IMG/VR virus record: IMGVR_UViG_3300044676_000865
Span: 1-30,036 of that record
Origin: a virus
Taxonomy: Duplodnaviria > Caudoviricetes
DNA length: 30,036 nt
Direction: 5' to 3' (one strand)
Shown here: positions 1,369-17,201 of the stretch, in pieces
Position numbering within the stretch: position 1 is the stretch's first letter
Layout of the letters: each line of letters begins with the position of its first letter
Notes under the pieces: model-generated
The model's database searches: none
What the model saw: the letters and a program-made list of their open reading frames with translations, nothing else
Told to the model about the DNA's origin: nothing
Program-made: the position numbers and the translations under genes

Positions 1369-1533
1369 ATGTTTAGAAAATTACTTAATAGAATAATAGA
1401 GGCAAGAACAGAGTCAGCTAGACGTAAGATTGCACGTATGCAACTTTATAGTATGACTGACAGAGAGCTACGAGACTTAGGTATTGGTAGATATGATATA
1501 GAAAGAGTTATACTTACAGGTAAAGCTCTTTGA
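1369..1533 (+). CDS. DUF1127 (YjiS/CcaF1-like) small Arg-rich protein, 54 aa
   Basis: Manual translation: MFRKLLNRIIEARTESARRKIARMQLYSMTDRELRDLGIGRYDIERVILTGKAL*. LxxMTDRELRDLGIxRxDI is the DUF1127 signature. AGGAG SD at 1358-1362. Below the ORF-track length cutoff. Confidence 0.85.
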   Translation: MFRKLLNRIIEARTESARRKIARMQLYSMTDRELRDLGIGRYDIERVILTGKAL

Positions 1534-12112: not shown

Positions 12113-12136
12113 GGCTACTCAGCTTCGGCTGACCCC
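12113..12136 (+). promoter_or_regulatory. cUUCGg hairpin with CUAC/CC internal loop in the scaffold leader
   Basis: GG-CTAC-TCAGC-TTCG-GCTGA-CC-CC, followed by SD AGGAG (12143-12147) and ATG 12154. No U-tract, so not a classic terminator. Confidence 0.65.
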
Positions 12137-12153
12137 AACAAAAGGAGAAAAAT

Positions 12154-13053
12154 ATGCCTGAACTAGCAGAAGTAGAAACACAAAAAACAGCAGGATTTGT
12201 TGACAGAGGTTACAATCACGAAAAGAAACGTAGCCGAATGGAAGCTGAAGAAGAGGAGATCCGTAAACTTGAAGCTGAACAACGTGGAGAAGAAGACGAA
12301 GAGCAGCAACCAGAAAAAGAAGCTTCCAAAGAAAAAGAGGCCGATACAGAAGTTAAAGAAGAAACGTTATCTGCTGAAGAAAAATCGTTTAAAAAGCGTT
12401 ACGGTGATCTAAGACGGCATATGCAAGATAAAGAAAAGGAATGGGACGAAAAGTTTCAAGCCTTTGAGAAACGATTAGAAAAAGAATCTATAGTACCACC
12501 TAAGTCTGATGAAGATATAGAAAAGTGGGCAAAAGAGTATCCAGACGTAGCAGGTATTGTAGAAACTATTGCTGCTAAAAAAGCTAAAGAGATGTTTAGC
12601 AAAGCTGAAGCTCGTATGCAAGAGTTTGATAAGATTCAAACAGAAGCTGAAAGAACTAAAGCTGAGAGTGTTATACGTAAGTCTCATGAAGATTTTGATG
12701 AATTACGTGCATCAGAAGAATTTCATGGTTGGGCTAATGAGCAACCTAAGTGGGTACAAGACGCATTGTACGAAAACTCAGATGACCCTGCTTCTGTAGT
12801 TCGTGTTATAGACCTCTATAAAGTAGACAAGGGTCTTACTAAAAGTGCAAAGAAAGCAAAAGCTAAAAATGCAGCTTCTACTGTGATTAAACGTACTAAG
12901 ACACAAGTAGATGTAGAAGATGCAAATGACGCAATTCGTGAGTCAGAAGTTGCAAAAATGTCCGATAGGGAATTTGAAGAACGATCTGACGAAATCAACA
13001 AAGCTATCCGTTCGGGTAAATTTGTTTACGATGTATCTGGCAAAGCTAGATAA
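12154..13053 (+). CDS. capsid scaffolding protein
   Basis: E/K-rich coiled-coil protein upstream of the capsid gene; FKKRYGDLRRH motif; C-terminal helix INKAIRSGKF. Confidence 0.85.
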   Translation: MPELAEVETQKTAGFVDRGYNHEKKRSRMEAEEEEIRKLEAEQRGEEDEEQQPEKEASKEKEADTEVKEETLSAEEKSFKKRYGDLRRHMQDKEKEWDEKFQAFEKRLEKESIVPPKSDEDIEKWAKEYPDVAGIVETIAAKKAKEMFSKAEARMQEFDKIQTEAERTKAESVIRKSHEDFDELRASEEFHGWANEQPKWVQDALYENSDDPASVVRVIDLYKVDKGLTKSAKKAKAKNAASTVIKRTKTQVDVEDANDAIRESEVAKMSDREFEERSDEINKAIRSGKFVYDVSGKAR

Positions 13054-13058
13054 AACTG

Positions 13059-13086
13059 TTGACAAATCAATTTTCAGCAGTATAAC
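13059..13086 (+). promoter_or_regulatory. sigma70-type promoter upstream of the major capsid gene
   Basis: TTGACA (13059-13064), 16-nt spacer, TATAAC (13081-13086), within the 240-nt scaffold-capsid intergenic region. Confidence 0.7.
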
Positions 13087-13089
13087 TAT

Positions 13090-13252
13090 GGGTATATTGA
13101 CAAAAGCCTCATTTTGACTACCTTTTGTCATACTCAAATTCATAAAAAGTCTAAACTAAGAAGAACTACCTGGACAAGTATAGGCCCAGTAGTATTCGGT
13201 AGCGCAACCTAATACTGACTGCACCCTAGAAAACGTACAGCCCCTTTTAGAT
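13090..13252 (+). promoter_or_regulatory. structured 5' leader of the capsid mRNA
   Basis: Stem TGACAAAAG (13098-13106)/CTTTTGTCA (13122-13130). Long stem TAGG-CC-CAGT-AGTATT...AATACT-G-ACTG-CAC-CCTA (13181-13228). Outer pairing GTCTAAA (13149-13155)/TTTAGAT (13246-13252). Confidence 0.55.
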
Positions 13253-13293
13253 GTTTAAGCTTAATTCAAGCCAAATATCAGGAGGATTTTATC

Positions 13294-14367
13294 ATGGCTT
13301 TTACAACAGCAGGAGGATACGGTAACTTACCTAACGGTAACTTTTCTAGTATCATATACTCCAAAAAAGTACAACTTGCATTCCGCAAGAGTACAGTATG
13401 TGGTGACATCACCAATTCAGATTATTTTGGGGAGATAGCTGCCCAAGGTGATACGGTGAAAATCATCAAAGAACCTGAAATCTCTGTGTCGTCTTATGCC
13501 AGGGGTACACAGGTTAATGCACAAGATCTTGACGATGAAGACTTTTCTCTAGTCGTTGATAAAGCTAACTACTATGCTTTTAAGATTGACGATATTGAGG
13601 AAGCTCATTCACATGTCAACTTTATGGATCTTGCTACCAACCGTGCAGCATATCGTTTAGCTGATCAGCATGACCAAGAAGTTCTTGGCTATCTATCAGG
13701 TTACAAACAGTCTGCACTACACACCGATGCTGACACAGTTAATGACCAAGTAAATGGTTCAAAAGCTGTATCAACAGCAGGTTCAGACGAGTTGTTATCT
13801 TCAATGAAACTTATCAAGTCTTCATTTGGTAACATCACAACGTCTTCTGCAGGAGATCACTCAATTCCTGTAGCAGCACGTTTACCAGGTGCAACTGCAC
13901 TACCAACAGCAACTGTTTCTCCTGCGATGATTATATCACGCATGAAACGTTTGTTAGATCAACAACAAGTTGATTCACAAGGTAGGTGGCTCGTAGTTGA
14001 CCCAGTATTCATGGAAATCTTAGCCGATGAGGACTCAAGGTTCTTAAACGCTGATTACGGTGAATCAGGTGCTCTACGCAATGGTCTAGTACTGAACAAC
14101 ATGCATGGCTTCAGACTCTATACTTCCTCAAACCTTCCTCACGTAGGTACAGGTTCAGGAACTGCAGGTTCTGCAAACCAGAACACTAACTATGGTGTGA
14201 TCGTTGCAGGTCATGACTCAGCAGTAGCAACTGCCGAGCAGATCAGTAAGACTGAAACATATCGTGACCCTGACAGCTTTGCTGACATCGTTCGTGGTAT
14301 GCATCTATACGGCAGAAAGATTCTTCGTCCAGAAGCAATCGTAACTGCTAAATATAACGCAGCGTAA
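13294..14367 (+). CDS. major capsid protein (HK97 fold, podoviral)
   Basis: 357 aa, AGGAGG SD at 13280-13285. N-terminus GYGNLPNGNFS.IIYSKKV, GDTVKI, C-terminal DIVRGMHLYGRKILRPEA; position after the scaffold gene. Confidence 0.93.
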   Translation: MAFTTAGGYGNLPNGNFSSIIYSKKVQLAFRKSTVCGDITNSDYFGEIAAQGDTVKIIKEPEISVSSYARGTQVNAQDLDDEDFSLVVDKANYYAFKIDDIEEAHSHVNFMDLATNRAAYRLADQHDQEVLGYLSGYKQSALHTDADTVNDQVNGSKAVSTAGSDELLSSMKLIKSSFGNITTSSAGDHSIPVAARLPGATALPTATVSPAMIISRMKRLLDQQQVDSQGRWLVVDPVFMEILADEDSRFLNADYGESGALRNGLVLNNMHGFRLYTSSNLPHVGTGSGTAGSANQNTNYGVIVAGHDSAVATAEQISKTETYRDPDSFADIVRGMHLYGRKILRPEAIVTAKYNAA

Positions 14368-14928: not shown

Positions 14929-15660
14929 ATGGCAACTTATATAACATTAGTAAATCAGCTTCTTGTTCGTCTAAACGAAGTAACGTTAGACACTGCAGGA
15001 GATGGCTTTGCTACAGTACGTAATGTTCAAGCACTTGCTAAGGATGCTATTAATAACTCCATTAGAAATATAGTTCAAACAGGACAAGAGTTTCCATTCT
15101 TAAAAACAACAAATACACAGACATTAACAGCAGGTACTAGGCAATATGCTTTTCCTGCTGATTTTGCTTCTGTAGATTGGGATACCTTTTATATAAAGAA
15201 ACTAGGGTCTGTAGGCAACACACCTAGTTTTCTTCCTACAATATCTTTTGAAGAGTATACTCAAAGGTTTCGTGGATTAGATGATGAAGGTGATTCTGGC
15301 TCTGGTATATCAGCACCACAACGTGTATATCAAACATTAGAAGCAAAGTTTGGTGTTACACCTGTACCAGATAATAGCTACGTAGTAGAGTATGTATACT
15401 TTTCATTCCCATCAGATCTCACAGCTTTTAATGATACATCTGTCATTCCAGATAGATTTAATCATGTACTAATTGATGGTGCTATGATGTACATGATGCG
15501 ATTTAGATCTAATGATCAAAGTGCTGCTATACATCAACAAAACTTTCAAGACGGTATAAAATCTATGAGACGAGTACTTATGGATGATCCACTTGATGTT
15601 AGATCAACAGTAATACAAAGAAACAAATCATTCAGTAACACTATTAGCAGTATTGTATAA
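14929..15660 (+). CDS. tail adaptor / tail tubular protein A-like
   Basis: N-terminus TYITLVNQLLVRLNE, LTAGTRQYAFPADF, PVPD..Y, IPDRF motifs of head-tail adaptors; position. Confidence 0.75.
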   Translation: MATYITLVNQLLVRLNEVTLDTAGDGFATVRNVQALAKDAINNSIRNIVQTGQEFPFLKTTNTQTLTAGTRQYAFPADFASVDWDTFYIKKLGSVGNTPSFLPTISFEEYTQRFRGLDDEGDSGSGISAPQRVYQTLEAKFGVTPVPDNSYVVEYVYFSFPSDLTAFNDTSVIPDRFNHVLIDGAMMYMMRFRSNDQSAAIHQQNFQDGIKSMRRVLMDDPLDVRSTVIQRNKSFSNTISSIV

Positions 15661-17201
15661 TGCCAGATAATTTAGCCTCTTTTAAAGTCTTCTGTCAAGG
15701 AGGACTAAATACTAGCAGAGATGTGCTATCTCAGGGTGAGACACAGCCTGGATCTGCTACTGCACTTATTAACTACGAACCTGCTGTTACTGGTGGTTAC
15801 AGAAAGATAAGCGGTTTTAGTAACGATTTTGGTACAGTTACAGGCACAGGAAATGTACTTGGTGTTTGTGTAGTTAATGGTATAAATGATGGCATATTAG
15901 CTTGCCGTACTCCTTCTAGTGATCCTGGAAATTATTTTCACAAATGGAACTCTAGTTCTTCTTCTTGGGATGCTATTACAGTTTCTGGTTCACCTACAAT
16001 GTCAGGTGTAACCAAGGTTAGATTTACAAAGTATAATTTTAGTAGCCCAAAGGTAATATTAACAGATGGTATAAATCCTGCAGCTACTTATGATGGCACA
16101 ACGTATACTCAGATTACTCACGCTAGTGCACCTGACGATCCAAAATTTTCTGCGGTATTTCAGAATCATATGTTCTTGGCAGGTGATCCAAACGAAGACA
16201 CAAACCTATACTTTAGTGCTCCATATGCAGAAACAGACTTTAGCGCAGCAAATGGATCAGGTGTTATAAATGTAGGTTTTCCTGTTGTAGCAATAAAGAC
16301 ATTTAGAGATGCGTTATACATTTTTGGTACTAATAACATCCGCAAACTTGTTGGCAATAATATATCTAACTTTGTTTTAGAAACAGTTACTGATGATTTA
16401 GGATGCCTAGCTACAGACAGTGTTATAGAAATAGGTGGTGATTTACTATTCTTATCTCAAGATGGTCTACGTCCAGTGTCAGGTACAGATAAGATTGGTG
16501 ACGTAAATTTAGAAACAGTATCAAAAGATATTCAATCTATTTTTACAGATATTATTTTTGATATTGACCTTGAGGGTTTAAATGCAGTAGTAATTAGACA
16601 GAAAACACAATTTAGATATTTCTTTGCAGGTAGTGATACTCAAGGTATCATTGGTGGCTTTAGACAAACACCTAACGGATTACAGTTTGAATACAGCCAG
16701 ATGCTAGGTATTACTGCTACTTGTGCAGACAGTGGTTATATAGGTCAGAACGAATTTGTAATACATGGTGACAGTTCAGGTAAAGTACACAGACAAGAAC
16801 AAGGTAATAGTTTTGCAGGAAATAATATACTAAGTATATTTCAAACACCATTCTTTCATATGCAAGACCCAGAACAACGTAAGGTATTTTACACTGTAGC
16901 AACTTATCTAAGATCAGAAGGTGATAACTCAATTGTTATGTCGGCTGTGTATGACTATGAAGATGTAGATACTCTTAACCCAACAAACTTTAATTTATCT
17001 ACAGCAGGAGCAGCAGCGTACTATAACGAAGCTACATACAATAGCACTGCAATATTTGATGGTAATCCATCACCAGTACAAAGAACTAGTATATCAGGAT
17101 CAGGTAAATCAGCATCTTTCAGGTATGTAACTAATGACTCAGATGCGTCACACAGTATACAAGGTTTAGTGATTACATTTGGAGTAGGAGACAGGTTGTA
17201 A
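15660..17201 (+). CDS. tail nozzle / tail tubular protein B-like (beta-propeller)
   Basis: GGLN N-terminal motif, FQNHMFLAG, GCLATDSV...GGDLLFLSQDGLR; follows the adaptor gene with a TAATG overlap. Confidence 0.8.
   Translation: MPDNLASFKVFCQGGLNTSRDVLSQGETQPGSATALINYEPAVTGGYRKISGFSNDFGTVTGTGNVLGVCVVNGINDGILACRTPSSDPGNYFHKWNSSSSSWDAITVSGSPTMSGVTKVRFTKYNFSSPKVILTDGINPAATYDGTTYTQITHASAPDDPKFSAVFQNHMFLAGDPNEDTNLYFSAPYAETDFSAANGSGVINVGFPVVAIKTFRDALYIFGTNNIRKLVGNNISNFVLETVTDDLGCLATDSVIEIGGDLLFLSQDGLRPVSGTDKIGDVNLETVSKDIQSIFTDIIFDIDLEGLNAVVIRQKTQFRYFFAGSDTQGIIGGFRQTPNGLQFEYSQMLGITATCADSGYIGQNEFVIHGDSSGKVHRQEQGNSFAGNNILSIFQTPFFHMQDPEQRKVFYTVATYLRSEGDNSIVMSAVYDYEDVDTLNPTNFNLSTAGAAAYYNEATYNSTAIFDGNPSPVQRTSISGSGKSASFRYVTNDSDASHSIQGLVITFGVGDRL

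Follow-up and report, generated by a model that had tools for sequence, protein, structure and literature searches.

A C-rich internal loop repeated in the scaffold and capsid mRNA leaders of HMO-2011-type phages: a candidate RNA operator whose type tracks the scaffold protein

The locus described here raises the question whether an RNA loop that recurs in the leaders of a phage scaffold gene and a phage capsid gene is one shared regulatory element and, if so, which protein reads it. An earlier note on this DNA had described an asymmetric CUAC/CC loop in four unrelated stems and had proposed that a phage protein binds these loops and thereby tunes scaffold:capsid stoichiometry. For phage P22, translational autoregulation of the scaffolding protein (gp8) was reportedly described by Wyckoff and Casjens in 1985, a study cited in PMC2115188.

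The stretch of DNA analysed (30,036 nucleotides, referred to as the window) is a 30-kb viral record and comprises the late region of an HMO-2011-type phage with the gene order terminase, portal, a 70-aa ORF, an 1858-aa ORF, a 299-aa gene and the major capsid gene. The capsid protein is 81% identical to that of Roseobacter phage CRP-9 and 73% identical to that of HMO-2011. The 299-aa protein belongs to no named family, and searches of Pfam, NCBIfam and PDB gave no significant match. Its AlphaFold model is all-helical (mean pLDDT 76, pTM 0.36), PF09306 is the closest of the named ESM-Atlas clusters (score 0.92, 13% of members), and Foldseek returned weak matches to scaffolds with E-values of 0.01-0.03. 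From the position of the gene, the helical model, the ESM-Atlas neighbour and the weak Foldseek matches we infer that it is the scaffold. Ahead of the capsid leader lies a promoter-like site, and the pattern TTGAC-N17-TA[TA]AAC is present in 101 of 158 unique related intergenic regions; because this site is conserved, the capsid leader likely starts near position 13090. Metatranscriptome contigs from four studies span the scaffold gene, the leader and the capsid gene; strand, start and level are not given for these contigs, which may derive from DNA and carry no weight in what follows. The features of the locus are compiled in Table 1.

Table 1. Features of the scaffold and capsid leaders and adjoining genes; coordinates are window positions.
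Feature	Coordinates	Strand	Basis or detail
Copy 1, scaffold-leader hairpin	12113..12136	+	CUAC 12115-12118 / CC 12133-12134
Shine-Dalgarno, scaffold gene	12143..12147	+	sequence
Putative scaffolding protein gene, candidate RNA reader	12154..13053	+	299 aa, phrog_13678
Basic helix KKRYGDLRRH, residues 80-89, start of long helix	12391..12420	+	codon 87 = 12412-12414, Arg
Promoter-like TTGACA-N16-TATAAC ahead of capsid leader	13059..13086	+	conserved; putative function
Copy 2, 5' hairpin of capsid leader	13098..13130	+	CC 13107-13108 / CUAC 13118-13121
Long-range helix P0, closes domain with copies 3 and 4	13152-13156 with 13253-13257	+	co-variation
Copy 4, outer loop	13166..13242	+	CUAC 13166-13169 / CC 13241-13242
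Copy 3, carries hairpin P5, inverted relative to copy 4	13181..13228	+	CC 13185-13186 / CAC 13222-13224
Apical loop AGCGCA with four-base palindrome GCGC, candidate kissing (dimer) loop	13201..13206	+	conserved palindromes
Alternative hairpin, predicted off state	13241..13285	+	Shine-Dalgarno AGGAGG 13280-13285 paired with copy 4 3' strand and P0
Major capsid protein gene	13294..14367	+	phrog_267, E 1e-61

Three observations concern neighbouring or related genes. The tail-region protein encoded at window positions 15660-17201 has 'amidase' as its best PHROG match and also matches head-closure and virion structural families; the amidase annotation is probably a mislabel. Group I introns (RF00028) split the major capsid gene in two relatives, once in L342 (3030-3238) and twice in L346 (2946-3173 and 3269-3527). 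In MW202701.1 (L086), an HNH-type endonuclease gene at 1115-1684 lies between the scaffold and capsid genes and splits the capsid leader.

All four copies of the loop that had been claimed for the two leaders were found (Table 1). The 3' end of the copy 1 hairpin, a likely translational operator, lies 17 nt upstream of the scaffold AUG. Copies 2 and 3 are part of the minimum free energy fold of 13090-13296, as is the inner stem of copy 4; the stability of this fold corresponds to z=-2.15, with 2 of 200 shuffled sequences equally stable. Copy 4 had been described as imperfectly closed, which is correct for the window and does not extend to its relatives, where the outer stem has at least 4 bp in 62 of 88 dereplicated leaders. 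An energy-filtered scan of the whole window gave three matches on the plus strand, namely copies 1-3, and two on the minus strand; no copies were detected in the window before other genes. In HMO-2011, scanning of the late-gene strand gave five matches, one in the scaffold leader and the rest outside the scaffold and capsid leaders. Beyond the account in the earlier note, the locus contains the promoter, the long-range helix closing copies 3 and 4, an overlap of the CC strand of copy 4 with the anti-Shine-Dalgarno segment, and the palindromic apical loop.

Conservation was determined in leaders drawn from IMG/VR, GTDB and cultured phages. The strict motif was present in 152 of 188 unique scaffold leaders (shuffle mean 1.4, maximum 3) and in 127 of 161 unique capsid leaders (shuffle mean 3.6, maximum 6), counts obtained with a scan that overlooked known copies closed by A-U or G-U; the reverse complements of both sets gave 0. 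Equal frequency in shuffled sequence, which the earlier note had named as fatal to the idea, was thus not what was found. In capsid coding sequence the motif occurred in 4 of 802 pieces. It was also found in pelagiphages, Rhizobium phages, Vibrio phage CHOED and Aeromonas phage 1233, with capsids 35-55% identical, and the hosts of motif-bearing phages are SAR11, SAR116, Roseobacter, Rhizobium, Vibrio and Aeromonas. In genomes whose capsid gene directly follows the scaffold gene, the loop is found only upstream of the latter, with tandem loops in the HTVC103P group; long scaffold leaders carry two nested copies in opposite orientations, like copies 4 and 3 in the capsid leader. A 16-base pattern based on sequence only retrieved 120 loci from IMG/VR; 86 match the scaffold profile, several others are truncated members, and the remainder look like chance matches. 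One clade (L042, L054, L056, L059, L061, L062, L064) has a different hairpin in place of the scaffold-leader loop; it has kept Arg87 of the scaffold and the capsid-leader copies, and the basic helix has drifted at residues 88-89. A search at Rfam gathering thresholds gave no match in the window or in 18 related loci, the best hit (E=9.1) being an unrelated snoRNA on the opposite strand, in agreement with the suspicion that the motif has no named family. Compared across all these leaders, the four loops represent a single conserved RNA motif common to scaffold and capsid mRNA leaders and confined to them, and this motif is a real, widely conserved and uncatalogued operator-like RNA.

The earlier note had pictured a constant loop set in variable helices, and relatives bear this out, the loop being conserved and the stems co-varying. 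Co-variation was counted in leaders anchored on the loop strands, a procedure chosen because a structure-unaware MAFFT alignment misplaced the variable stems; it was applicable to 89 of 98 dereplicated capsid leaders. Compared to a cross-sequence null that ignores relatedness, position 3 of the inner stem in the scaffold leader was paired in 72 of 82 leaders (null 44.7) and position 3 of the copy 3 stem (P4) in 84 of 89 (null 54.3). For copy 2, position 3 of the outer stem was paired in 80 of 85 leaders (null 44.6), with four Watson-Crick pair types, and inner position 1, the closing pair, in 74 of 86 (null 41.5). The stem of copy 4 was CUG/CAG in 61, CUA/UAG in 13, CAG/CUG in 13 and CUG/UAG in 2 of 89 leaders.

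The loop had also been likened to a C-loop. According to passages of PMC9516175, the first base of a C-loop makes a trans Watson-Crick/Hoogsteen pair whose partner, taken from the short strand at the 3' closing pair, is G, C or A, never U, and the side of the cis Watson-Crick/sugar-edge pair accepts any closing pair. In our leaders, the long strand begins with C in 80 of 82 scaffold leaders and at 82 of 86 copy 2 sites. Every anchored scaffold leader had a purine, G or A, as Hoogsteen partner (CG 67, UA 8, CA 4, UG 3), and so did every copy 2 site, a result that is partly given by construction since the anchor demanded a purine there; in the inner copy of HMO-2011 the partner is perhaps U. The closing pair of copy 2 was UA at 44, CG at 13, GC at 8 and AU at 7 of 86 sites. 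At the level of sequence, the closing pairs agree with the rules given in those passages, and the motif is C-loop-compatible. Like a C-loop, it is an asymmetric 3x2 or 4x2 loop within a hairpin whose first base is usually C; it differs in its invariant parts, CC (or AC) as the short strand and AC at the end of the long strand. Alternatively, the loop may be a stack of an A.C and a C.C mismatch. The fixed CC and AC exceed the needs of the fold, which suggests recognition. In three dimensions, a C-loop contains two crossed base triples. A C-loop is also borne by a known translational operator, that of E. coli thrS.

Lineages with an altered loop bear on the identity of the reader. Members of the CRP-738/L031 clade have AC as the short strand of the scaffold-leader loop, and inspection showed mostly AC at this place in capsid copies 2 and 4 as well; CC is found in nearly all leaders outside this clade. 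Loop position 1 of the clade is A in copies 1 and 2 and C in copy 4, and the loop of CHOED is AUAC/AC. When A-type lineages were defined by their RNA, residue 87 was the only scaffold column conserved to >93% elsewhere that had changed in all 8 of their sequences; in this first comparison, residue 87 was Arg or Lys in 205 of 206 scaffolds as compared to Gln in 8 of 8 A-type sequences. For a follow-up set, scaffolds retrieved by a protein-only pattern that required Gln were pooled with the earlier ones, giving 340 distinct proteins. Both loop positions were C in 238 of 238 resolved scaffold leaders of Arg/Lys87 scaffolds (9 unresolved) and in 0 of 77 of Gln87 scaffolds (15 unresolved), where the second Gln lineage had been enlarged by the Gln-requiring pattern and its protein-side overlap is partly by construction. 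One scaffold (L337) has Asp at position 87 and, by eye, a CUAC/CC leader, which the script left unscored. In the Gln lineages the long strand mostly begins with a purine; purine-first capsid-leader loops were seen by inspection in a long-branched Gln pair (L484, L495), and Aeromonas phage 1233 and L539 combine Gln87 with a CC short strand, yet position 1 is a purine.

A scaffold tree of 68 representatives, built without the KKRYGDLRRH helix, placed the CRP-738 clade among Arg proteins and recovered the second Gln lineage, which includes CHOED. The association of residue 87 with the loop is represented by only two independent pairs on supported branches; both agree, a number too small for significance (sign test, p=0.5). 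Within the CRP-738 clade, position 87 is the sole real change among 59 conserved scaffold columns. Apparently, loop type tracks the scaffold protein at residue 87, an association that is new here. Since the loop changes in several copies together and in step with one scaffold residue, the data point to a phage-encoded reader, and we consider the scaffold to be the probable reader of the loops.

The A-type loops of the CRP-738 clade accompany capsids that are 77-86% and about 48-58% identical to the window capsid. Scaffold and leader of the CRP-738 type were found joined to a capsid of the former kind in L031, L342, L345, L346, L497, L504, L507, L512, L545 and L550. Such mosaic head modules imply recombination near the capsid start.

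As to mechanism, we lean towards a reading in which unassembled scaffold binds the loops via KKRYGDLRRH, represses its own translation and likely favours translation of the capsid gene, the capsid step being the least sure. Free scaffold would bind the loop and sense, through residue 87, loop position 1, the first short-strand base or both; the bound hairpin would block the 30S subunit. Across relatives, the end of the scaffold-leader stem is 12-23 nt upstream of the AUG. This distance falls within the footprint of the 30S subunit; as the stem lies in the covered region, binding would repress. In the capsid leader, binding at copies 3 and 4 would keep the RNA in a fold that leaves the Shine-Dalgarno sequence free. 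Finally, capsid would draw scaffold into procapsids and so lift the control, resulting in feedback on the scaffold:capsid ratio.

The capsid leader was analysed for the two folds that such activation would involve. Helix P0 co-varies, with several pair sets and an own score of 6.99 as compared to a null mean of 6.40 and a maximum of 6.62. The helix of the predicted off state scored 6.11 and was not above its null (mean 6.03, maximum 6.19). A two-state switch supported by co-variation was thus rejected, P0 passing and the off-state helix failing. In the free ensemble, the Shine-Dalgarno sequence is paired with the CC strand of copy 4 in 44 of 88 capsid leaders; an overlap with the anti-Shine-Dalgarno segment is lacking in half of them. 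Forcing copies 3-4 and the outer stem increased the mean unpaired probability of the Shine-Dalgarno sequence from 0.26 to 0.57 (88 leaders), and forcing the fold with P0 in the window increased it from 0.02 to 0.82 at a cost of 6.8 kcal/mol, openings that are partly built into the constraint. When only the inner stems were forced, the mean rose from 0.26 to 0.32, and no rise was seen in the window. Activation is the weakest step on account of this effect of the constraint, the small effect of the inner stems and an off-state helix that does not co-vary.

A conserved NGCC is located 12-34 nt upstream of the capsid AUG in 80 of 98 leaders (window 13250-13281); near the capsid Shine-Dalgarno sequence, it may represent a fifth, degenerate CC loop. 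It is placed like the scaffold-leader operator and would fit an alternative in which scaffold binds the loops and represses both genes, so that the system is a brake on head-protein synthesis and does not control the ratio. Lineages without a capsid leader, whose loops are restricted to the start of the scaffold-capsid operon, would fit as well. However, copies 2-4 are 50-190 nt away from the AUG, and in 44 of 88 leaders copy 4 cannot coexist with a paired Shine-Dalgarno sequence, which predicts activation; repression of both genes appears rather unlikely to us.

Another reader altogether is a slightly less probable alternative: capsid, portal, terminase, DUF1127, an early protein or a host protein might recognise the loops, and residue 87 might co-vary by ancestry. 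Just two independent switches are supported, and the screen for co-varying columns covered five late proteins, the terminase in part, both of which leave room for such a reader, for instance an early protein or the rest of the terminase. Apart from the scaffold, however, the screen gave no matching column. None of 113 capsid columns changed in the CRP-738 clade and A-type loops persist unchanged over two capsid lineages, so that the capsid was rejected as reader; the portal (284 columns), part of TerL (33) and the small post-portal ORF (11) were likewise rejected, none of their columns having changed in both Gln lineages. A small DUF1127 protein is encoded at window positions 1369-1533 and in 5 of 10 related genomes, all five Roseobacter phages. 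DUF1127 was rejected as reader, being missing from 5 of 10 motif-bearing genomes (HMO-2011, HTVC103P, HTVC115P, phiM6 and CHOED). Against a host protein, the motif spans six host groups and both loop types are found among Rhodobacteraceae phages. Scaffold, capsid and DUF1127 had all been named as candidate readers; residue 87 favours the first, and the other two are disfavoured.

Hairpin P5 carries an apical palindrome in 63 of 68 cases with inserts of 34-52 nt. The palindrome is GGCC in 35, GCGC in 10, GAUC in 10, GUAC in 5 and AGCU in 3 hairpins, and its type changed 19 times on a FastTree capsid tree. Centred palindromes were found in 49 of 73 long P5 inserts as compared to 7 of 425 other loops in these leaders, and an origin by chance or as a by-product of hairpin formation was rejected on the basis of the latter number. 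The length of P5 clusters at 35-40 nt (58 of 89 leaders) and 47-50 nt (10 of 89); in 19 of 89 leaders P5 is short (at most 25 nt) and mostly lacks the palindrome, which is hence an accessory element. A second intramolecular copy of the palindrome was present for GCGC in 0 of 10, for GAUC in 2 of 10, for AGCU in 0 of 3 and for GUAC in 5 of 5 leaders; GGCC also occurs in nearly all leaders through copy 3. By these counts, a consistent intramolecular partner does not exist. Such a pattern would be expected of a kissing-loop homodimer. Two capsid mRNAs probably pair through this palindrome, and as a second new element we propose the palindromic loop of the capsid leader as a candidate RNA dimer site. 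Kissing-loop RNA dimers are described for the GACG loops of MoMuLV/MoMuSV and for phi29 pRNA in passages of PMC7357161. The likeness lies in a short self-complementary apical loop and, for the phage pRNA, in loop-loop pairing over four bases. Unlike these cases, the loop described here belongs to an mRNA leader of a dsDNA phage and occurs with at least five interchangeable palindromes; moreover, pRNA is a separate RNA and uses two different loops, and dimerization through P5 is predicted.

These hairpins would also suit an alternative in which loops and kissing hairpin tether scaffold to paired capsid mRNAs and nucleate procapsids co-translationally, with little effect on translation. The prevalence of the palindromic apex, the preferred P5 lengths and the arrangement of the copies as inverted pairs in both leaders are in line with this. 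Copy 1 directly adjoins the scaffold ribosome-binding site, however, and the leaders with a short P5 and lineages without a capsid leader, such as the pelagiphages, would have no platform of this kind; we regard tethering without regulation as improbable. Least probable by far is a loop that no dedicated protein reads, serving just as a structural C-loop or acting in nuclease processing or stability: C-loops can be structural and the closing pairs fit their geometry, but a structural element needs no CC that is fixed in every copy and then changed together in one clade, and the scaffold-leader stem (5+2 bp) is shorter than the substrates of RNase III.

A broader reading builds on the preferred one, repression by scaffold of its own translation with likely support of capsid translation. 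Here, the scaffold would moonlight as a sequence-specific RNA regulator whose residue 87 alone sets the code, Arg or Lys matching C and Gln matching A; it would repress its own mRNA and switch on the capsid mRNA. Capsid mRNAs that kiss in a lineage-specific manner would form a scaffold-loaded platform nucleating procapsids and would keep apart the RNAs of co-infecting relatives. Taken as a whole, this reading is unlikely.

The closest known system is scaffold autoregulation in phage P22, where control is attributed to the N-terminal part of the scaffold (bioRxiv 2022.12.13.520362). P22 resembles the locus described here in having a gene for a helical scaffold of roughly 300 aa upstream of the coat gene, and the ESM-Atlas neighbour of the window scaffold, PF09306, is named Phage-scaffold. 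In the start regions of P22 genes 8 and 5, inspection of sequence and minimum free energy fold revealed no CUAC/CC hairpin before the ribosome-binding site. The present system differs by a defined candidate operator that is repeated, recurs ahead of the capsid gene and changes in step with one residue of a protein. Candidate viral structured RNAs, including cis-candidates upstream of capsid genes, are described in passages of PMC10690425. The only candidate listed there before P22_CoatProtein, DNAVirus_7287, is associated with human and other mammalian hosts and is not marine; an unnamed candidate in the alignment archives of that study may overlap the phage motif. PMC12005531 does not mention autoregulation. 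Our literature search retrieved nothing relevant on the motif or on a scaffold operator, and no defined RNA operator or RNA-binding surface for any phage scaffold.

The locus thus supplies a candidate 24-nt hairpin operator, a 10-residue helix and a natural swap of specificity. If the proposed reading is true, hairpin and helix would form an orthogonal RNA-protein pair of small size, and a palindromic loop that dimerizes would be one of the rare examples of kissing mRNAs in dsDNA phages. For the phages themselves, a widespread marine group, regulation of this kind would account for balanced amounts of scaffold and capsid.
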